Shown piece by piece: positions 1,620-52,210 of a DNA stretch of 55,623 nt. Source of the DNA: Crassostrea angulata (Eukaryota); the NCBI RefSeq assembly GCF_025612915.1, contig NC_069115.1:8423492-8479114 (forward strand), given 5' to 3'. The translations under genes and the position numbers were made by a program. How positions within the stretch are numbered: the first letter of the stretch is position 1; every line of letters begins with the position of its first letter. The notes under the pieces are model-generated. The model was not told where the DNA came from. It was given only the letters and a program-made list of their open reading frames with translations, and did no database searches.

Positions 1620-2896
1620 TTTTGCATTCTCAGATAACGACAAGATACATACTTCAGTTCAATTTCCAATTTAGATAATAACAATATGGACTTACCTGTT
1701 TTGCTACACAAGTGTACAGACAATTTTTCAAACCAGTTACCTTGTTATTCAAGAACACGAAGTTTTTGACATTTTGTCAGTAATACCTGTTAATAAAGCA
1801 GTGGTTCCTGACAGTGTAAGCAACAGAATGCTTAAATCCTGCAAAGAAACTATTTCAAAACCTTTGTGTCATCTATTCAACAAATCACTATCATCTAAGA
1901 CTTTTCCTGACTGCTGGAAATTGGCACATGCAATTCCTTTATTTAAGAAAGATGATCTATCTATCACATCAAACTACAGACCAGTGTCATTGCTGAGTTG
2001 TATTAGTAAAATGTTTGAGGGTTCCTGTTTAAACATAACTTTTATTTTATTGTACAATTTTTTATACTCCCACAACTTATTTTATAAATATCAGGCTGGT
2101 TTTTTGCCTGGACATGCAACTGTTTACCAACTTTTAGAAACATATCACTCTATGTAAAAAGTATTGATGATGGTAATTACTGCTGTGTTATCTTTTGTGA
2201 TCTTTCAAAAGCTTTCGACAGGGTCTGGCATAAGGGTCTCACTCATAAACTTAAATCATATGGAATCTCAGGGCCAATTCTTGAATGGTTTATTAGCTAC
2301 TTAATAGAACACATAAGGTTATGTATAAAAACAAACTCTCAACAAAAGTTGTATTCTTTAGTTTTTAAAAATTTCCTAATTTGATGTTTGATGATTGTGC
2401 TTTGAATATGTTTCACAATACAAGCATCTATGAGTATTGTTATCTTCAAATTTAAGTTGGTCTAATCACATAAACATCATTGTTAAAAAACCTTACAAAA
2501 AACATTTCTACTTAAAAAACTTAAATTTACTCTATCTAGAGATATTTTAGCACAAATGTATTTATCATTAGTAAGACCACAACTAGAGTATGCTGTTGAA
2601 GTTTGGTCTGGATGTATCCATAATTTGATATGGATAAGCTTGAAAAGGTTCAATTATATGCAGCATGAATAGTGTCAGGTCTTTTAGTCATAGCTTCCAG
2701 AAATTCGTTATATATGGAAACAGGATGGGAACCATTAATAATGACACGAGACCGCTTTAAATTATCTACTATGTTCAAAATTCATAACAATATTGTTCCT
2801 TTTTATCTAAAAGATATAACTCCTGTAATTAGAAATGTCACTTCCAACTATAATACTAGAAACTCCTCAAACTATTCTTTGCCTAGATATAGCGTA
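1620..2896 (+). mobile_element. Non-LTR retrotransposon (LINE) ORF2 reverse-transcriptase fragment, frameshifted; upstream part of a LINE interrupted by the pogo insertion
   Basis: Translation shows RT motifs: SNYRPVSLLSCISKMFEG; QAGFLPGHATVYQLL; CDLSKAFDRVWHKGLTHKLKSYGISGPILEWFISYL; LVRPQLEYAVEVWSG; TGWEPL ... YSLPRYSV. Several frameshifts and stops. The reading frame continues across the pogo insertion into 6002+. Confidence 0.6.
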
Positions 2897-2917
2897 AAGG
2901 CCGGTATCTTCGGACAG
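2897..2917. repeat. Left terminal inverted repeat of pogo element
   Basis: Reverse complement of 5981-6001 with one mismatch; preceded by TA. Confidence 0.75.
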
Positions 2918-3590
2918 CCGGTAAATTCGGACAGGACTCGTTAAATGCAGTCCTTTACCTTCAACAAATACACACTTGCTTTCTCTTTTTCACTTTCGGT
3001 TAATATTAGAAATAAAGTTGTACGACTTACCTTTTTTATCCGGATGTGTTGTTGTTATTATTTAAAACCAGCAAAAAACAAAACTTCTTTTCCGGATTGA
3101 TACAACAGTTGTCGACCGCGATAATTTCAAGGACTCGTTCCAAAGTTTTGATTAGGTAAGTAATATTTTTTTTTCACTCAATACACAATTTTCCCAAACA
3201 ATTTGATTATCATATTGTGCTTTTAAGGGAAATGAACATAGTTTTAAGTGTTAAATCATGCTGATTTTAAAGCAACATTGGTATTTTATAGTGTCCGAAA
3301 TTAACGGACGAATTTTTTTCAAAGTCATTTAATTCCGGACATTTTTTTTAAAATGTAAGAAAAATAGAAAGTGAATTTTTTATCGTTAGTTTGAAAATTT
3401 ATCAAGTCTATTAACGGTAAAACATTTTCAAAAACAATTTGCAATTATATTTTTTCCAGATTTTTCTAGATAATTAATAATTCAGTAACGTTTGCTTTTT
3501 ATAATTATACATCTATGTTGATTTTTTTTAAATGTCTCCGATGCTATTAATTTTTATTGTTTTTTTTAATAGGGAAAATTTTCTTTCAGC

Positions 3591-4907
3591 ATGGCCAGAA
3601 AAAAGGCAAAAACAAGGGGGAGCTACCAAAAAAATGACCCCTCAGTAATGGAGCAGGCGGTAAAAGCTGTACAATCGGGGGCGCTGTCTTTAAGAAAAGC
3701 CGCGGAGAAGTTTAATGTCCACAAGTCAACTTTGCACGACAGAGTGACGAAACGAGTTACTCTCGATGCAAAGCCTGGGAGAAAGCCTGTGCTCTCGAAC
3801 GAAATTGAAAAAAGAATTATAAAAAATGTTACTGAAAGTGCTGAGAAGGGTTTCGGTATATCAAGAAAACAACTCCTTCATCGAGCTGCTGTTCTTTGTA
3901 AAAGGAACAAAATTACAGGTTTCAAAAACTTCACACCATCTAAACACTGGTGGGAAGGTCTGAAAAAAAGGCACCCCGAGGTTGCGTTAAGGAAGCCAGA
4001 AAAGCTCGGCACAGTACGTGCAAGAATGCTTAATGGCTGTGTAGTAGAAAAGTATTTCGCAGACCTATCTAAAATAGTTGTTAACCCTGGTTTGCAAGAG
4101 AAACCAGAAAATATATGGAACTGCGACGAAACCGGCAAGCAGTTAGAGCACACGCCCGTCAATGTCATTGCCAGACGTGGCAGCAAATCTGTTGTTGGCC
4201 GCACTGGCAATGACAGGTCAAATATTACAATCATGGCCTGCGTAAATGCCACTGGGGATTCCATGCCCCCTATGCTTATAGTGAAGGGCAAGACTAAAAA
4301 GTCTTTATTCGGCTTCAACACAGCCGAGTCTCCCCAAAATTCAGTTTGGACATACAATGAAAAGGCTTGGATGAATGAGGAGTTGGGGGAACAGTGGTTT
4401 CGGGAGGTTTTTCTAGCGCACTGTGGCCCCGTGAGACCCCAACTTCTCATTCTGGATGGCCACGGATCTCACGAAACACTCGGCTTGCTAGAACTTGCAG
4501 CGGAGGAAAATATACATATATTAGCACTACCTCCCCATACCACTCACTTTTTGCAACCCCTAGACAGAACTGTATTCGGTCCGTTCAATAAGGCGTACAA
4601 CAGGGTTTGTTCTGAATTTTTGTCTGAAAATCCGAGTAACTTAATAAACAAATGGACGTTTCCAAAAATGTTTTCTAAAGCATGGGAGGCTGCAATTACG
4701 AAAGAAAACATCCAGAGTGGCTTCAGGGCCTGTGGGATCTACCCACTCAATCCCCATGCGATTCCGACATCGGCATATTTACCGAGCTCAGCTTACGAGA
4801 CAAGCATGCCCGTTGCGGAAACACCAGCAGCTTTAGGGAGACCGCCATCTCCAAGTGCCGCCGACAATGAAAATATTCCAAGCATCAATATGCCCATCCC
4901 GCCATAA
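3591..4907 (+). CDS. pogo/Tigger-type DDE transposase (N-terminal psq/CENP-B-like HTH, Tc5-like HTH, DDE_1 endonuclease domain)
   Basis: 438-aa ORF. HTH: SVMEQAVKAVQSGALSLRKAAEKFNVHKSTLHDRV. DDE_1 signatures: NIWNCDETG, LLILDGHGSHETL, ILALPPHTTHFLQPLDRTVFGPFNKAY. Sits inside the TIR-bounded element. Confidence 0.8.
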   Translation: MARKKAKTRGSYQKNDPSVMEQAVKAVQSGALSLRKAAEKFNVHKSTLHDRVTKRVTLDAKPGRKPVLSNEIEKRIIKNVTESAEKGFGISRKQLLHRAAVLCKRNKITGFKNFTPSKHWWEGLKKRHPEVALRKPEKLGTVRARMLNGCVVEKYFADLSKIVVNPGLQEKPENIWNCDETGKQLEHTPVNVIARRGSKSVVGRTGNDRSNITIMACVNATGDSMPPMLIVKGKTKKSLFGFNTAESPQNSVWTYNEKAWMNEELGEQWFREVFLAHCGPVRPQLLILDGHGSHETLGLLELAAEENIHILALPPHTTHFLQPLDRTVFGPFNKAYNRVCSEFLSENPSNLINKWTFPKMFSKAWEAAITKENIQSGFRACGIYPLNPHAIPTSAYLPSSAYETSMPVAETPAALGRPPSPSAADNENIPSINMPIPP

Positions 4908-4922
4908 ACAGAGTCACAACCC

Positions 4923-5516
4923 ATGCACAATGCACCATCTACAATGCCTCCTATTGATTCAGTAAGTCATGATCAGCCCACGCCAAACATCATATCTCTA
5001 GAGCAGCTTCCCCTTCAAACTACATCACTGCCCACAACGCCGTCTTCGCAGAATTTTGAAGTAGATGATCCCAGCTATTTACTACAGCTGATTAACAGTG
5101 GCGAAATTCAGGTGGTTGCCACAGCTGACAATGAAGGCGTCGCTACACTGCCTGTGGACACGGTTTGGAATGAACACATAGACGCAATCTTTTCTCCATC
5201 CGTAAATGCCCCACGCACTGCAGTCGAATCCAAAAAGAAAAGCCGCGCAAATACATCGCATCGGTTACTTACAAGTGTAGAGGTTGTTAATGAAAAACGG
5301 GCAGTTGCTGAGAAAAAGAAGAAAATCGAGGAGGAAAAACAAAACAGAAAACTCAAGAGGGAACAAAACAAACTTAAAAGAGAGAAAAAAAACAGCTTAG
5401 AATTTATACACTACATGATATTTCAATGTTTGCCTTCCGGTGTTGAATTAATTCAAATGAAATATATTTACATGTATATAACTTATAGCTTTTTTGTTAA
5501 ATTGTTGATAAATTAA
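4923..5516 (+). other. Same-frame continuation of the transposase ORF after a single TAA; basic/acidic C-terminal tail
   Basis: 3591 and 4923 are in the same frame and are separated only by TAA at 4905-4907. The downstream ORF ends in a K/E-rich low-complexity region (EKKKKIEEEKQNRKLKREQNKLKREKK). This suggests either a nonsense mutation in a once longer transposase, or a genuine stop. Confidence 0.4.
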
Positions 5517-5980
5517 AAGAAAATGATACTTTTTTGTTTTTCTCTTCATTACTCAAATAAACGAAACATCGAAATAAAGAACAAGGATAATTTGATATAT
5601 GAGCGCAATTCTTTTTTTTCTTCAGAAATCCAAAATGTTTTTTTTATTCCATTATTTTTAAAACAATTAAATTACAATGCAATACCATAATACGTATATC
5701 TGTGCATAGATTTTTAAAATATTACGCATAATTATTATTTTTCTATCAATGTCCGAACTAACCGACTGACCGTCCGAATTTACCGACTTGCTGTCCGAAT
5801 TTACCGACCTCTGTTACGTCTTGGTTTTTATTTTATATTCTTTTGTTAACATGATAACATCATTCGGAACTCTAGATTTTTCGTAAGTATTGTTGTTTTC
5901 ACAATCGATGCACATTCACTCACACGATCGTGTCAAGGTGCTCAAACTCCAACCTAATCTGATTTCCGAAGAGCACCAGA

Positions 5981-6001
5981 CTGTCCGAAGATACCGTCCT
6001 T
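5981..6001. repeat. Right terminal inverted repeat of pogo element
   Basis: Reverse complement of 2897-2917 with one mismatch; followed by TA. Confidence 0.75.
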
Positions 6002-6480
6002 TACCCTAGACTAGAAGTTTTAAACAAGTCATTTTTTCCTGACACTATTCGCAAGTGGATTAGTCTGAGTAATAATACCAAGGAAGCTACTTCCTTTAAC
6101 ATTTTTAAGAAAACACCACAGAGCGATTATACACAATCTCCAAAGATTTCTTTTGGTAATAGATTCTTAAATATCATTCATACGAAATTAAGGCATAATA
6201 GTGTTCCCAACTATGATCCTTATCGATGTAACATAATAGCCAACCCAATGTGTTTAATATGTGGACGTTACGAAGATGCATATCACTTGTTCTTCGTTTG
6301 TAAAAATTATTCATTATTAAGACAATCATTTATGTATAATCTTTTATCGTTGAACTTCTTGAATATAATTGATGTACATTTGATACTTTGGGGAGACGAA
6401 ATTTTATCTTATGATGAAAACATAAAAATATTTAAAGAAGTTCATACATTTATACAAAAGTATGATAGATGTGTATAAGT
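6002..6480 (+). mobile_element. 3' part of the LINE ORF2 interrupted by the pogo element
   Basis: Translation: SFFPDTIRKWISL ... IHTKLRHNSVPNYDPYRCNIIANPMCLICGRYEDAYHLFFVCKNY. This carries the SFFP.TIR.WN.L motif and a C-terminal Cys/His motif typical of many LINE ORF2 tails. It is homologous to 10440-10870. Confidence 0.55.
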
Positions 6481-9479: not shown

Positions 9480-10870
9480 TTACCCTTTTCCTTAGTCTAA
9501 AACAAATTTAAACAAATGTTTAAGGTGGATCAAGGCGTGTAATCGACCCAGACAAACTGAATGAATTGCAGACAGAAATTTTACAGCTTAAAGAAACAAC
9601 TGATACTTTACAGGAGAGCCACATTAATAACATTTCTAGTAAATTGTGTAACTTGTTCTTATCCGCAGCAGATTTGACTTTAGATGTTAAACGAAAACCA
9701 GGACTGACAATTAATTGCAATACTAAAAAGCCATGGTTCAACGCACAATGCAGAACAGCGAGAAGAAAAATCCACAACAAATTCAGGACTCAAGAGAACT
9801 GTACATTAATGTATATAATGTATATAATTGTATATTAACGATTTAGAAAACTACTTCATACAAAATGGTATTAAAGGAGTCACTAGCCTAAGTGAGAAAC
9901 TGGAAACTGTGATGTATACCATGTTAAAACTTTTTATCCTTTTTTTACGCTGATGACACGGTAATACGCAGACGATTTACAAAAATCACTGAACTTTTTT
10001 TCTGAATATTGTGATATGTTGAAACTGCAGGTAAACATTGAAAAGACTAAAGTGTTAATCTTTTCCAAAGGTCGGGTTACAAAAAGAATTCTTTTATACA
10101 GATATGTACCTGTTGAAATTGTTAATGAATTTAAATATCTTGGTGTTATTATGCCTCGTAGTGGATCTTTTAAAGTACGAAAAACATTTAATTGAGCAAG
10201 CCTCAAAAGCTTTGTACGGTGTATTTAGAAAAATAAGATATTTTGATTTACCAATCGACTGACAATTTGATGTGTTTAATAGTGTTATTAGCCCAATCTT
10301 ATTTTATGGTTATGAAGTGTGGGACTACGAAAATACAGTTATTTTAGAGAAAATTTTCCCTTCTATCAGGACTTTAGAATCGAATTACAATACACGCAAT
10401 CGATAAGACTATACTATTCCAAAATGTAGAATAGAAACATTCAAGAAATCGTTTGTTCCTGACAGGATCAATATATGGAATAGTTTAAGTTTATTTATCA
10501 CAAACAATTCCTCCTTTACAGGTTTCAAAAGCAGTATTCAATTAATCCAAATTAAACCTCCGTCCTATTTTTGCTTCGGCAAGAGACGACTTAATATCAT
10601 ACATACAAAACTTCGACATAACTGTATCTTAAACTTCGACCTTTTCAGAAAAAATATCTTGGAAAGCCTTAATTGCCAATGCGGATTACCAGAAGATTCT
10701 TATCATTTGTAAAAATTATACCAATGCACGAAATGAATTGTTTTCAAACCTTTTGAACGTAAATCAAATTGACATTATTAATTGTCATTTACTTTTGTGG
10801 GGAGATGAATCTCTGAGTATCAATTTAAACCAACATATTTTTTTTAGCTGTTCAAAGATTCATAAGAGAT
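9480..10870 (+). mobile_element. Second LINE copy (same family as 1620-2896/6002-6480), internally deleted and degraded
   Basis: ORF 9566..9838 (KKPWFNAQCRTARRKIHNKF, the EN-RT linker region). Then YADDTVI (RT YXDD motif) near 9950, LGVIMPRS, SFVPDRINIWNSLSL, IIHTKLRHNCILNFDLF, and a Cys/His tail that aligns to 6002-6480. Confidence 0.55.
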
Positions 10871-12714: not shown

Positions 12715-13650
12715 CTCTATGTGTGAGAATAGAGAAGAAGATTTTTAAACATTATATGCATTAACGCTATATTGCCCCCTCCCCTCATGTCCTGAACCCC
12801 TGACCCAGGGGCCATGATTTCACAATTTAGGTAAAGGAGATTGTGGATATCATAACCATGTATTCAGTTTTTTGCCCACATGTGTGGGAGTAGAGAAGGT
12901 TTAAAACATTTTTACTATATGGCCATATTGGCCCCACCCTAGAGCCTGAACACCTAACAAAGGGGTCATGAATTACACAATTGTGGTAGAGGGCCGTCAT
13001 GGACATCATAACCATGCATTTAGTTTTTAACAAATATATATGGGAGTAGAGAAGAGGATTTTCCAAGATTTAATACATTTTTACTATATGGCCATATTGG
13101 CCCCACCCTCGAGCCAGAATCCCTGACCAAGGGGTCATGAATTTCACAATTTAGGTTGAGGGCTTCATGGACATCATTATCATGCATTTAGTTTTAAACA
13201 AACATATATGATAGTAGAGAAGAAGATTTTCTAAGATTTAATACATTTTTACTATTTGGCCATATTGGCCCCACCCTAGAGCCTGAACCCCTGATCCAGG
13301 GGTCATGAATTTCACATTGTGGTAGAGGGCTTCATGGGCATCATAATCATGCATTTAGTTTTTAAAAATATATATATGGTAGTTGAGAAGAACATTTTCT
13401 AAGATTTAACAGATTTGTACTATATTGCCATATTGGCCCCACCCTCGAGCCAGAACCCCTGACCCAGGGGCCATAAATTTCACAATTTTGGTAGAGGGCT
13501 TCATGGACATCATCACCATGCAAACAATTTTTTTTCTCACATGCGTGGGAGTAGATAATAAGATTTTTAAAAATTTGGCTTTTCTGCATATTTGGCCCCG
13601 CCCGTGGCACCCCAGGGGTGGTAGAGCCATGAATTTCACAATTTAGATTC
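12715..13650. repeat. Satellite-like tandem array, about 165-170 bp monomer x about 6
   Basis: Direct periodicity of ggccccaccct...ggggtcatgaatttcacaatt at about 12780, 12935, 13100, 13270, 13437, 13590. ORFs 13362..13781, 13406..13639 and 13425..13646 are artefacts of this repeat. Confidence 0.75.
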
Positions 13651-14947: not shown

Positions 14948-16533
14948 GAACAATAGGTATAATAAAATCAGCTTAATAGAGTCATAATTAATACAAACTA
15001 TCTGGACAATGTACAATAATACATGTAGATCCTGTATAAATAAAATCCATTTTTCCCCTGGATATTCTTGTTTATAATCATTGGTCCCTTTTCTAACAGG
15101 ATGATTTTATAGTCATATCATATGTTGAGTATTGCAGTTTTCAAAAAGATCCTTAACAATAGTTTATATATGGGATATAAACCTACATCAAACTCTGAAC
15201 CTTCTTGTAAAGCCAAAGAATTGTCCTGGGGCCAAAGTCTTAACAATTATAAAGAATCATCTGGCTGATTAGTTTCAGAGAAGAAGATTTTTAAAGATTT
15301 ACTCTATATATTCCTATGTTTAATTTCAACCCCCCATTGTGGCCCCACCCTACCCCCGGGGGTCATGATTTTCACAACTTTGTCAATTGAATCTACACTA
15401 CCAGAGGATGCTTCCACACAAGTTTCAGCTTTCCTGGCTGATTAGTTTCTGAGAAGAAGATTTTTAAAGATTTACTCTATATATTCATGTGTTAAACTTC
15501 AACCCCCCATTGTGGCCCCATCCTACCCCCGGGGGACTTAATTTTCACAACTTTGTATCTACACTACCTGAAGATGCTTCCACACAAGTTTCAGATTTTT
15601 AAAGATTTACTCTATATAATCATATGTAAAAGTTTAACACCCCCCCCCCCCCCATTGTGGCCCCATCCTACCCCCGGGGGTCATGATTTTCACAACTTTG
15701 TATCTACACTACCTGAGGATGCTTCCACACAAGTTTCAGCTTTCCTGGCTGATTAGTGTCTGAGAAGAAGATTTTTAAAGATTTACCCTGTATATTCCTA
15801 TGTAAAAGTTCGACCCCCATTGTGGTCCCACCCTATCCCCGGGGGTCATGATTTTCACAACTTTGAATCTACACTACCTGAAAATGCTGCCACACAAGTT
15901 TCAGCTTTCCTGGCTGATTAATTTCTGAGTAGAAGGTTTTTAAAGATTTACTCTATATATTTCTATGTTAAACTTCAATCCCCCATTGTGGCCCCACCCT
16001 ACCTCTGGGGGTCATGATTTTCACAACTTTAAATTTACATGACCTGAGGATGCTGCCACACAAGTGTTAGCTTTCCTGGCTGATTAGTTTCAGAAAAGAA
16101 GATTTTTAAAGATTTACTCTATATATTCATGTGTTAAACTTCGAACCCCCATTGTGGCCCCACCCTACCACCGGGGGTCATGATTTTCACAACTTTGTAC
16201 CTACACTACCTGAGGATGCTTCCACAAAAGTTTCAGCTTTCCTGGCTGAATAGTGTTTGAGAAGATTTTTAAAGATGTACTCTATATATTCCTATGTTAA
16301 ACTTCGACCCCCATTGTGGCCCCACCCTACTCCCGGGGGTCATGATTTTCACAAATTTGAATCTGAATCTACACTACCTGAGGATGCTTTCACATAAGTT
16401 TCAGCTTTTCTGGTCTTATGGTTCATGAGATTTTCGAAAATTTCTCGAAATTTTTCATAAATTCCTAATTATCTCCCTTTGCAAAAGGGCGTGATCCTTA
16501 ATTTTCACAACTTTGAATCCCCTTAAGCTAAAA

Positions 16534-16697: not shown

Positions 16698-16815
16698 GGA
16701 ATGAAGCGCATGATATGCACTGAAAGTTGAGGACAATCTTCCATCACTTATCCGAAGCTCCAATCCAAGAAGAATAGCATCTACTGCTACAGCTGCTTCA
16801 TCGTCACCATCCGGC

Positions 16816-17360
16816 ATGTGTGTTGACATTCGTCTTCGAAACAATCCCAACTTGGATCTTGTGCGTGAAAACGCAGTAGAGTGTCTGCCTTTTTACAGCG
16901 AGGAATCTGTGATGGAGATTGCTCACATTGACTGTCCCCTCTCCATTGATCAGGAAGTAGCGGGGTCAGCCGTAACTCGTGTACCGATGGAGCCTGTGCC
17001 TTTAGTGAAGGAGGTTCTTACGGAGGAGGACGAGTGTGTTGGGAACAAGGAGTCTTCACCCGCAGTTGTATCAAAAAAGCGAAGATTACCCTTGCGACAT
17101 GTCCAGCAAAATGACTATTCCGAGACGGCTGACAAACGTGCTCGTTTATCCCGGAAATTCAGGTGATAGTTGTAAGGCCACGTTTGAACTTTCAGTGGTG
17201 CCCATTTCCTGGCTGCAATGTTAAGAACAGAAAGATCAAGCGTCATGTTCAACAGTCCCACCTTCCTCGGATATTTAGTGACGTGAGACCGATTCGCTCT
17301 ATGGAAGAGTTTAAGCTATGCAAACTAAAGCTCACAGCGCTAGAGTCTTTCTTTGGTTAG
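16816..17360 (+). other. Frameshifted ORF pair with a possible C2H2/BED-like zinc-finger motif; origin unclear
   Basis: ORFs 16816..17166 and 17163..17360 are contiguous with a +2 frame change. The second contains WCPFPGCNVKNRKIKRHVQQSH (C-x4-C-x9-H-x4-H). The first has an acidic patch followed by a KKRR basic stretch. No family assignment is possible from sequence alone. Confidence 0.25.
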
Positions 17361-49892: not shown

Positions 49893-51412
49893 GTGAGAGA
49901 TTGAAAAATAGCGTAAAGTTAAAAGTAAAATTAACTCGTTTCAAAAATAATTATTAAGTCGTACTTGAACACATTCGGATTTTCTGATTTAAGTCGTTTT
50001 AAGAATAGGAAATGTTTATGTTAATTTGGATTATGTGTAGTCGTACCAGAATTATTCCATTTTTTTCTTTTGAATAAGTTACCCTTGTTATTTGTGTAAG
50101 AACTTTGATTTTACAAGTACTTCAAGTTTTACTCTCGACATTAATGGAATACCCACTCGTTGCTTTTGCTCTAGTTTCATCTATTTCTTTTTTAAAAATT
50201 GATTATTTCTTGTTTTATTAACTATGAAGAATTATATTAATTATTTTTTTTTTACCTGGGTAACAGTTTTCAACAGATCCTGCTTTGTGCTATCACTGCT
50301 TTATATTTCTAAGGAATTAACACATTAGCAAACTGTTTTCTGCTACGACACTCATACCGTGTGTCTAAAACCTTCATTATTGTCCGAAATCAGAAGAATT
50401 TACTGTTTTGTGCGGTCTTGGGTCTTTTAAAATTAAATTTGCAATACAGTCGGTATTTTCCTATGTAAAAATTCAAACCGCCATCACGGTCCCGCCCTAC
50501 CACTAGGGACTGTGATTTTGCAAACTTTAATTTATACTACCCGAGGATGCCTCTACACAAGTTTAAGCTTTTCTGGCCAAAAAGTCTCTAAAAGAAGATT
50601 TTTAAAGATATTCTCTATATATTCCCAAGTAAAAATATATCCCCCATTGTGGCACCACCCTACCCCCAGGGACCATGATTTGAACAAACTAGAGTCTACA
50701 TTATCTGAGAATGGTTACACACCAATTTGAACTTTCTTGGGCAAATAGTTTTTAAAAGAATTTTTTTAAAAGATTTTTTCTATATATTCCTATGTTAAAC
50801 TTGATCCCCAATTTGTGGCCCCACCCTACCCCCGGGGACCATGAGTTGAAGAAACTTGAATCTACATTATCTGAGGATGGTTACACGCCAATTTGAGCTT
50901 TCTTGGCCAAACAGTTTATGAGAAGAAGATTTTTAAAGATTTTCTTTATATATTCCTATATAAAAATTTATCCCCCAATTGTGGCCCCAACCTAGCCATG
51001 GGGACCATGATTTGAGCAAACTTGAATCTACACTATCTGAGGATGCTTCCACTCAAATTTGAGTTTTCCTGGTCTAATAGTTTATGAGACGAAGATTTTT
51101 AAAGATTTTCTCTTTATATTCATATGTAAAACTTGATCCCCCAATTGTGGGCCCGCACTACCCCCGGTAACCATGATTTGAACAAACTTGAATCTACACT
51201 ATCTGAGGATGCCTCCATTTTAATTTGTGCTTTTCTGGCCTAATAGTTTTTGAGAAAAAGATTTTTAAAGATTTTCTCTATATATTCCTATGTAAAACTA
51301 GATCCCCCAATTGTGGCCCAATCCTACCCCCGGGGATCACTATTTGAACAAACTTGAATCTACACTATCTGAGGATGCTTCTACTCAAATTTGAGCTTTC
51401 CTGGCCTAATAC

Positions 51413-52210
51413 TTTTTGTCCCCCGCCGCAACGCGGAGCGGGGACATAGAAATGCCGGGCGTCCGTCCGTCCGTGGGTCCGTGTGTCCGTGCGTCCGTCC
51501 GTCACACTTTTTTGTAAGCGCTCTCATGCCTACAAATTTTGACGGATTTTCATTAAATTTATACCAAATGTTTATACCACTATTACCTTGGTCAAGTTCG
51601 AAAATCAGCATTGGTCGATACTTTTTGTTGGCGTTATGGGACTTTGACCACAATCATGACTCCGTTTTATCCAAAAATTGACCTTGTAAGCGCGCTCATG
51701 CCTACAAATTTTGACGGATTTTCATTAAAATTATACCAAATGTTTATACCACTATTACCTTGGTCAAGTTCGAAAATCAGCATTGGTCGATACTTTTTGT
51801 TGGCGTTATGGGACTTTGACCACAATAATGACTCCGTTTTATCCATAAATTGACCTTGTAAGTGCTCTCATGCCTACAAATTTTGACAGATTTTCATTAA
51901 ATTTATACCAAATGTTTATACTACTAATACTTTGGTCAAGTACAAAAATCAGCATTGGTCGATACTTTTTGTTGGAGTTATGGGACTTTGACCACAATCA
52001 TGACTCCGTTTTTTTCCAAAAATTGACCTTGTAAGGGCGCTCATGCCTACAAATATTGACGGATTTTCATTAAATTTATACCAAATGTTTATACCACTAA
52101 TACCTTGGTCAAGTTCCTAAATCAGCATTGGTCGATAGACTCGATACTAGTATACTGCTTGACCGGCGGGGGACCCTGGAATTCTATTCTTGTTGAGAAG
52201 AAGATTTTTG
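51413..52210 (-). mobile_element. Nested HINE-like element of a distinct family, inserted in opposite orientation into a T-run of the host satellite monomer
   Basis: Read on the minus strand: 5' acaagaatagaattccagg|gtcccccgccg (from 52210); about 3.6 copies of its own 172-bp tandem repeat (51514-52140); (GACG/GACGGAC)n (51463-51508); the hairpin gtccccgctccgcgttgcggcgggggac; and aaaaa (51413-51417). The 11-bp gtcccccgccg / cggcgggggac motifs at 51418-51428 and 52181-52191 are inverted. The host monomer sequence cctaatagttttt|gagaagaag is split around the element. Confidence 0.6.
51514..52140. repeat. Tandem repeat, 172-bp monomer x about 3.6 (internal to the nested element)
   Basis: gtaagcgctctcatgcctacaaattttgacggattttcattaaatttataccaaatgtttataccactattaccttggtcaagttcgaaaatcagcattggtcgatactttttgttggcgttatgggactttgaccacaatcatgactccgttttatccaaaaattgacctt repeats at 51514, 51686, 51858 and 52030. 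Confidence 0.8.

Follow-up and report, generated by a model that had tools for sequence, protein, structure and literature searches.

Evidence for a recently inserted, non-autonomous copy of a DD35D pogo-superfamily transposon within a decayed LINE of the oyster Crassostrea angulata

What interrupts the open reading frame (ORF) of a long interspersed nuclear element (LINE) on contig NC_069115.1 of the oyster Crassostrea angulata, and is the interrupting sequence still able to drive its own movement? The stretch analysed, referred to throughout as the window, comprises 55,623 nucleotides (positions 8,423,492 to 8,479,114 of the contig, assembly GCF_025612915.1); it is gene-poor, with a GC content of about 33-35%. 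Within an AT-rich part of it (window 2700-6200) lies an element of about 3.1 kb bounded by terminal inverted repeats (TIRs), which an earlier sequence-only reading had described as a structurally intact pogo element, inserted in the LINE, whose transposase was split only by one in-frame TAA. We are highly confident that window 2892-6006 is a recent insertion of a cut-and-paste pogo-superfamily DNA transposon (IS630-Tc1-mariner group), in a copy that is non-autonomous; this result explains the interrupted LINE ORF in the annotation of the window.

The copies with which we compared the element came from Logan assemblies. Using the read-through product of its transposase frame as a protein query, we retrieved P0001, a protein of 602 aa and 98% identity that represents a 214-member cluster; the eleven other copies referred to below are the contig of P0001 together with ten that encode a second intact variant, P0121. 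Two related elements, L012 from another Logan sample and L013 from Saccostrea cucullata (transposases 56-57% identical), were also compared. We place the ends of the element at 2892 and 6006 (3115 bp) because the inverted repeat extends further than had been read previously and because other copies diverge exactly there. The terminal features are as follows.

2890-2891, no strand: left TA target-site duplication, from the flanks of other copies and the single TA in a paralogous LINE copy.
2892-2917, plus strand: left TIR, 26 nt, GCGTAAAGGCCGGTATCTTCGGACAG, from inverted repeat I1, the majority termini and L012/L013.
5981-6006, minus strand: right TIR, 26 nt, reverse complement GGGTAAAGGACGGTATCTTCGGACAG, from the inverted-repeat finder and other copies.
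6007-6008, no strand: right TA target-site duplication, from other copies and the paralogous LINE copy.

The repeat finder carried the inverted repeat across 2890-2917 and 5981-6008 (pair I1, 28 nt, 93%), and the TIRs of the window copy match each other at 24 of 26 positions. In the majority sequence of the other copies, the termini form a perfect 26-bp inverted repeat, TA/GGGTAAAGGCCGGTATCTTCGGACAG ... CTGTCCGAAGATACCGGCCTTTACCC/TA, from which the window copy departs by the substitutions G2893C in its left TIR and G5997T in its right TIR (the family majority has G at both positions). Logan contigs that run beyond the element lose similarity exactly at window 2890 or 6008, that is, just outside TA/GGGTAAAGG...CCTTTACCC/TA. 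Besides the window site, these contigs contain five distinct left and four distinct right flanks, with TA preceding GGGTAAAGG in four of the five independent left flanks and following CCTTTACCC in all four right ones (8/9 overall), and L002, which is complete, is flanked by TA at either end. L012 and L013 have the same terminal sequence as the window element.

The earlier reading had placed the ends at 2897 and 6001, with 21-bp TIRs and TA at 2895-2896 and 6002-6003, in which case the outer matches would be a chance target palindrome. Those two TAs are present and the 20/21 match is genuine; indeed, the 21-nt terminal motif occurs in the window only at the element's two ends (chance expectation 0). 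However, the five extra bases on each side are common to independent copies with unrelated flanks, and elements of other lineages also begin TA/GGGTAAA. Excision at the inner ends would, moreover, make the site 10 bases longer than it is in the paralogous LINE copy, and it gives a frameshift with an immediate stop in the LINE (...YSLPRYSVP-stop). We therefore give the inner ends practically no credence, and the boundaries, TIR length and duplication of that reading need to be moved by 5 bp per side, although its broader description of a TA duplication, short TIRs and subterminal repeats agrees with the repeat finder, the motif scan and the other copies. Two longer duplications were considered and ruled out: a 6-bp CCTAGA duplication by the independent copies and the paralogous LINE copy, which place the ends at TA/GGG...CCC/TA, and a 3-bp (TAA-type) duplication by flanking triplets that differ (ATA versus TAG in the window; ATA versus TAC in L002). 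A scan for the terminal repeat at up to three mismatches gave no derivative miniature copies elsewhere in the window.

The sequence on either side of the element belongs to the host LINE.

1675-2889, plus strand: upstream host part, a decayed non-LTR (long terminal repeat) retrotransposon, from reverse-transcriptase motifs, a weak RVT_1 match and protein relatives.
6009-6478, plus strand: downstream part of the host LINE ORF, with its stop at 6476-6478, from ORF continuity and the alignment with L014.

Reverse-transcriptase motifs of the upstream part (NYRPVSLLS..., FCDLSKAFDRVWH) fall in three different frames, and this part also contains stops and an internal deletion. Excising 2892-6008 leaves the LINE ORF open over the full 228-residue stretch (...YSLPRYRLEVLNKSFFP... 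/ ...NYSLPRYRLEVLNKSFFPDTIRKW...) up to the stop at 6478, and protein relatives of the LINE read ...NYSLPRCRLEAFNKSFFP... / ...NYSLPRCRLEAFNKSFFPDTIRKW..., with nothing extra at the insertion site. Across the junction, a paralogous LINE copy, L014, can be aligned gap-free (TTGCCTAGATATAGACTAGAAG versus TTGCCTAGATGTAGATTAGAAG; 89% identity over 745 bp), and it has a single TA at the insertion site. The element is thus inserted into a TA within the 3' ORF of an already decayed LINE, and its ends at 2892 and 6006 are backed by ten independent copies (about 99% identical), by the related elements L012 and L013 and by a gap-free paralogous empty site. The restored ORF, the LINE protein relatives and L014 bear out the earlier proposal of an insertion in a LINE; its statement that excision restores the LINE ORF exactly holds with the revised ends, open to 6478, and fails with the original ones. 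A second, more diverged LINE 3' fragment of a related family, at window 10407-10709 (plus strand), also has an uninterrupted site motif, ...YTIPKCRIETFKKSFVPD....

Having defined the element, we can ask whether it encodes a working transposase. The relevant features are listed here.

3591-4904, plus strand: transposase codons 1-438, with HTH_psq at residues 20-55, HTH_Tnp_Tc5 at 70-134 and DDE_1 at 211-378.
4905-4907, plus strand: premature stop TAA, a mutated GAA (Glu439); G at 4905 in 11/11 other copies.
4908-5390, plus strand: transposase codons 440-600, now untranslated, frame still open; a linker, then the conserved C-terminal module.
5385-5392, plus strand: run of eight A (seven in other copies); the extra A is absent in 11/11 other copies.
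5556-5561, plus strand: AATAAA, candidate polyadenylation signal about 155 nt past the native stop, suggested by the sequence.
5573-5578, plus strand: second AATAAA candidate, likewise suggested by the sequence.

Consistent with the description of a 438-aa DDE transposase with catalytic signatures, a profile search of the ORF at 3591-4907 against Pfam matched DDE_1 (6e-33), HTH_psq (2.5e-10) and HTH_Tnp_Tc5 (2e-6). The catalytic triad comprises D179, D289 and D325 (in NCDETG, LILDGHG and LQPLDRTVF), with 35 residues between the last two, the DD35D arrangement. CENP-B_N and BrkDBD gave no Pfam match in the transposase even at E<=1, and an exact look-up of the 438-aa ORF returned no record. The AlphaFold2 model (mean pLDDT, the predicted local distance difference test score, 74.9) is confident in the DNA-binding regions and the catalytic core. 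A PDB sequence search gave only a weak match to the HTH_psq of LCoR, while Foldseek of the predicted structure against the PDB returned Mos1 transpososome chains (E ~1e-6) and the catalytic domains of SETMAR and Sleeping Beauty, which fits the IS630-Tc1-mariner fold.

The frame indeed stays open beyond the TAA, as had been noticed, and the question of whether this codon is a lesion or a genuine stop had been left standing. Comparison with the other copies settles it in favour of a lesion: position 4905 is T in the window and G in 11/11 other copies, where codon 439 is GAA (Glu), and all 11 read through to a 602-aa protein ending ...KLKREKKTA-stop. The intact proteins P0001, P0121 and P0123 carry E439. 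As read from these sequences, the TAA at 4905-4907 is a nonsense mutation of GAA and not a native stop. An intron skipping the TAA was also considered and rejected, since the other copies have GAA and the only GT...AG candidate noticed on visual inspection (55 nt, 4857-4911) would disrupt the frame.

What the TAA removes can be judged from the tail of 26 aligned homologues (41-60% identity, mostly bivalve), in which a conserved module comes after a Ser/Thr/Pro-rich linker that is variable and disordered. The module contains the motifs DDPxxLLxLIxxG, WNxEIExxF and ITSHRLLTSxEVxxEKR and a Lys/Glu-rich stretch, and F534, H557, L560, T561, K569 and K583 are invariant across the 26 homologues. In the AlphaFold2 model residues 410-491 are disordered and residues 563-601 form a long, confident helix. 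The same-frame ORF after the TAA matched no Pfam family. Searched against 1.84 billion cluster representatives, a profile of the module detected 229 of them at E<=1e-3, mostly short fragments; ten long matches were tested, and all ten contained DDE_1, most also HTH_psq, and two a C-terminal PHD finger. By these matches the module looks specific to this transposase clade, and it looks to be undescribed. The PHD fingers lie beyond the module (PF00628 at E ~1e-5 in P0219 and P0295), and in P0027 and P0080 a Cys/His pattern is visible past it. Such a finger suggests a chromatin-reading extension in these relatives, and the module itself could serve to direct integration by tethering the transposase to a host factor or to chromatin.

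Two alternatives bear on this tail. If the 438-aa ORF were the complete native transposase, the TAA would be genuine and the downstream frame coincidental; Passer-family transposases are only 400-500 aa long (PMC9976928) and the 438-aa product holds all recognised domains. This is extremely improbable given the GAA and 602-aa ORF in all 11 other copies, the invariance of the downstream motifs in homologues of only 41-60% identity, and the detection of the downstream profile in 229 cluster representatives. We infer, rather, that the TAA is inactivating because it removes a conserved tail.

The second alternative is that the copy is still autonomous, through read-through of the TAA or an active 438-aa protein. 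The frame is open for the 161 remaining codons, the frameshift described below affects just the last two residues, and the truncated product would have the DNA-binding domains and the DDD core. Against this, clade-wide conservation of the C-terminal module implies selection for it, both TIRs are mutated and I554 in a conserved motif is changed, and we regard autonomy as very unlikely.

The preferred reading, that the copy is non-autonomous, draws on further lesions, since the TAA is not the only one. The extra A in the A-run causes a +1 frameshift after codon 600, replacing the terminal Thr-Ala-stop with a 40-residue read-through and leaving the native TAG (5398-5400) out of frame. Of the 12 copies, only that in the window has G4905T and the extra A. 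Within the ORF (3591-5390) it departs from the majority by 8 synonymous and 9 non-synonymous changes; the nonsense change is among the nine, and the other eight are missense changes, including I554N in the conserved ITSHRLLTS motif. With the TIR substitutions added, "structurally intact" was too generous a description, and a transposase split by a single stop an incomplete one. Judged from its sequence, the window copy cannot be the source of a full-length transposase, and its mutated TIRs may lower its efficiency as a substrate.

The terminal regions contain further repeats of the inner part of the TIR.

2919-2934, plus strand: subterminal direct repeat of the inner 16 nt of the TIR (CGGTAAATTCGGACAG), 17 bp past the first unit, from the repeat finder (D11, I8) and the motif scan.
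3291-3306, minus strand: weak internal copy of the 16-nt motif, three mismatches, of uncertain significance, from the motif scan and repeat I17.
5749-5806, minus strand: three tandem copies of the 16-nt motif with a 21-bp period, 200-257 bp inside the right end, from repeat D1 and the motif scan.

At up to three mismatches, the 16-nt motif has seven matches in the window, all of them inside the element, where 0.25 would be expected. The left pair (2902-2917 and 2919-2934) consists of adjacent direct copies, the right TIR itself carries one copy, and tandem-repeat analysis of 5749-5806 gave a period of 21 and 2.8 copies. The pair spaced by 17 bp is also found in L012 and in the Saccostrea element L013; the latter has internal motif copies similarly far from its right end and so keeps the asymmetric layout. 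The unit at 2919-2934 may be a second transposase-binding site and the triplet at 5749-5806 a set of accessory sites, the putative binding-site sequence at the element ends being CCGGTAAATTCGGACAG.

The region between the left end and the ATG, 699 nt in the window element, probably contains an intron.

2892-3155, plus strand: putative non-coding first exon (5' untranslated region, 5'UTR), suggested by a donor position conserved in three diverged elements.
3156-3589, plus strand: putative 5'UTR intron, GTAAGT ... tttctttcAG, ending 1 nt before the ATG, suggested by splice-site positions in three elements.

A donor-like GT(A/G)AGT occurs at an offset of 264 nt in the window element (GTAAGT), 272 in L012 (GTGAGT) and 273 in L013 (GTAAGT), and all three have a pyrimidine tract and AG 1-11 nt ahead of the ATG (AG at 3588-3589 in the window). 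The putative splice junction joins ...TTTTGATTAG to CATGGCCAG (window 3155/3590), and GC content is 23% in the putative intron against 38% in the putative first exon. The 5' regions of the three elements are unalignable except for the first 43 nt (the TIR and adjacent repeat) and one short patch. It is because the surrounding regions do not align that the splice-site positions are unlikely to be inherited neutral sequence. An intron of about 430 nt in the 5'UTR is therefore probable on these sequence grounds, and it looks to be undescribed. The short patch, ACCGCGA(A/T)AATTT, lies about 30-35 nt upstream of the putative donor (window 3115-3127, ACCGCGATAATTT; CCCGGGAAAATTT in L013) and may be a promoter or regulatory element.

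How recent is the insertion? Logan contigs align to the window at 98.5-99.0% identity, and in the multiple alignment the window copy differs from the majority of the 11 other copies at 35 positions in 3115 bp (about 1.1%), a divergence that supports a young element, as had been suggested. The cluster contains three distinct intact 602-aa variants (P0001, P0121 and P0123) alongside frameshifted fragments, a mix that is as expected for a young family; P0121 is recorded in 32 index blocks, from which 24 contigs were read. The family looks to have been recently active elsewhere. A related 3.8-kb element, L013, was observed in Saccostrea cucullata (JAVVLV010023697.1, at ~1968-5783) with an intact 723-aa ORF and perfect TIRs of 24 nt plus a flanking TA on each side; it sits in an intron of a kinesin gene, and its NCBI label is that of an ordinary "uncharacterized protein" gene.

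Several points weigh against reading the window copy as a young, inactivated member of a recently active TA-targeting family. One left flank lacks the TA: L007:1-40 (Logan ERR13913536) reads ...GATC/GGGTAAAGG, which could reflect mutation of the duplication, a join made during assembly or an insertion of an aberrant kind. Logan contigs are short-read assemblies and may collapse copies, so that an "intact copy" may in part represent a consensus path. Synonymous and non-synonymous differences stand at 8:9, versus about 1:3 expected under pure neutral decay, and the window variants L58 and P454 recur in other cluster members. Because of this synonymous excess and these recurring variants, part of the 1.1% divergence would reflect subfamily history and not age since insertion. 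The truncated 438-aa product retains the entire DNA-binding and catalytic core, and it is from the conserved tail that its loss of activity is judged; we likewise infer the intron, the binding sites and any current activity.

To which branch of the pogo superfamily does the element belong? Membership of the superfamily itself, as proposed earlier, agrees with the DDE_1 D-D-D triad, the bipartite helix-turn-helix region including HTH_Tnp_Tc5, the TIRs flanked by TA duplications, the subterminal repeats and the dispersed copies. In the scheme of Gao et al. (2020, PMC7386202), DD35D marks Passer and Fot/Fot-like elements; the combination of HTH_psq with HTH_Tnp_Tc5 is the Fot/Fot-like architecture, BrkDBD belongs to Passer, and CENP-B_N is the motif of Tigger and pogoR. 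DD35D groups, and six Crassostrea gigas sequences in a Fot1 subfamily, have been reported by Dupeyron et al. (2020, PMC7325037). We compared P0001 by pairwise BLASTP with four reference proteins taken from two supplements, and the placement is drawn from these scores and not from a tree.

Fot1 (F. oxysporum): 125 bits, 26% identity over residues 12-411.
Passer (stickleback): 84 bits, 26% identity.
pogo (Drosophila, exon 1): 60 bits, 29% identity over 172 columns.
CENP-B (human, first 393 residues): 37 bits, 22% identity over 217 columns.

On these comparisons, we would place the family in the DD35D group of the pogo superfamily, closest to Fot/Fot-like elements, with Passer-like short TIRs and TA duplication. 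The likeness to Fot1 lies in DD35D, in HTH_psq with HTH_Tnp_Tc5, in the best score among the four references and in a long C-terminal region past the catalytic core, and oyster members have already been published. The differences are a TA duplication where most Fot elements have TAA (TA is found in most Fot-like elements and in a minority of Fot, so that it points neither way; PMC7386202), a TIR of 26 bp versus 40-60 bp in most Fot/Fot-like members, and an ITSHRLLTS-type module that is not detectably shared with Fot1 (18 bits, not significant). The host is also an animal, whereas Gao et al. (2020, PMC7386202) found Fot-like elements only in protists and algae.

Passer elements have transposases of 400-500 aa, TIRs below 30 bp and TA duplications (Wang et al. 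2023, PMC9976928). The window family resembles them in DD35D, TA duplication, TIRs below 30 bp, animal hosts including molluscs, and young, near-identical copies in several genomes; in both, the inner part of the TIR is directly repeated alongside (compare CCGTATTTTCCGGCGTATAAGACGACTGGGCGTATAAGACGAC in PasserC entries). It differs in having HTH_psq in place of BrkDBD, a transposase of 602 aa, a basic helix where the Passer tail is short and acidic, and ends that begin GGGTAAA where Passer has CCGTA, and its 84 bits to stickleback Passer fall below the Fot1 score. Mos1 and Sleeping Beauty are alike in the predicted fold of their DNA-binding and catalytic parts and in their TA target, and the two binding sites per end in the inverted repeat/direct repeat (IR/DR) arrangement of Sleeping Beauty recall the putative sites of the window family. 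These share only 10-16% identity with the family, which has DDD with 35-residue spacing, an extra 190 C-terminal residues and asymmetric ends with three internal repeats at the right end only.

The transposase homologues that carry names are nearly all bivalve, and the automatic NCBI names among them ("tigger transposable element-derived protein 1/6-like", "jerky protein homolog-like") would make this a Tigger, Jerky or pogoR-type element. The family does share DDE_1, the CENP-B-type HTH_Tnp_Tc5, TA duplication and short TIRs with pogo, pogoR, Tigger, CENP-B, JRK and TIGD, and DD35D falls within the DD29-36D range of Tigger (PMC7386202). However, the N-terminal domain is HTH_psq and CENP-B_N gives no match even at E<=1. 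Bivalve pogoR-type entries have about DD29/30D and CAGT-type termini where this family has DD35D and GGGTAAA, and the scores fall from Fot1 through Passer to Drosophila pogo and CENP-B. An origin under these names is improbable. Equally, pogo transposases are often domesticated (PMC7386202) and some relatives have gained a PHD finger, which might point to a host gene that is no longer mobile; the TIRs, the TA duplication, the many insertion sites with unrelated flanks, the location inside a LINE and the pseudogene-type lesions make this almost certainly wrong. The element is provisionally placed as a mobile DD35D pogo element closest, by pairwise score, to Fot/Fot-like.

Elements of this kind are already known, since Fot1-like pogo sequences have been published from oysters, and young pogo families from many animals; the element is genuine but ordinary, with a module and a 5'UTR intron that are possibly undescribed. 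A bolder and rather doubtful suggestion is that the family forms an undescribed, bivalve-centred animal branch of Fot-like/DD35D pogo, characterised by GGGTAAA...CCGGTANNTTCGGAC termini, the 5'UTR intron, the C-terminal module (sometimes with PHD) and current activity in its hosts. Current host activity is suggested because there are several distinct intact 602-aa variants and many insertion sites.

A plausible life cycle for the family can be drawn by analogy. An intact copy would express the 602-aa transposase, probably from a transcript with the ~430-nt 5'UTR intron. The transposase would bind the repeated CCGGTA(A/T)NTTCGGAC units, two at the left end and, at the right, one terminal and three internal, and, as in Tc1/mariner and Passer, would pair both ends before excising the element. 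Its DD35D RNase-H-like domain would cut the element out and paste it into a TA dinucleotide, which is duplicated in the process. Intact copies, which exist in related samples, could then mobilise the window copy in trans. For annotation of the window, the analysis fixes the true ends and makes the copy a pseudogene-type, non-autonomous insertion, and it documents a young, probably still active DD35D pogo lineage in bivalves. If active, the family would be a candidate for a native vector of gene transfer in molluscs, which have few, with added value if the C-terminal module tethers the transposase to chromatin.

Elsewhere in the window, dispersed tandem arrays with a unit of about 166 bp occur at 12794-13597, 15261-16413, 28520-30260 and 50521-51417 (and 51512-52137), with 2-10 copies each and 78-88% matches, and there is a separate 172-bp array. 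The ~166-bp arrays resemble satellite-like repeats carried by mobile elements; a literature search with exact 16-21-mers of the 166-bp repeat and of the TIR gave no matches. An Rfam tRNA match at 41721-41792 (minus strand; 29.7 bits versus a threshold of 29, E=0.034) probably reflects either a degenerate repeat of tRNA origin or chance, ARAGORN having found no tRNA anywhere in the window. At 16714-17163 (plus strand) a 150-codon open stretch lies in a GC-richer segment and, judging from coverage figures, is probably the segment matched by a Logan protein (83%) and by a Saccostrea cucullata "uncharacterized protein" (59%). Finally, an 85-codon open stretch at 27388-27642 (minus strand) resembles a DEDD-type exonuclease (…LVGHNCKSFDIPVL…); its Logan relatives, 84-90% identical, match Pfam PF00929 (RNase_T) and PF25244, and it could be a host-gene exon or part of another mobile element.

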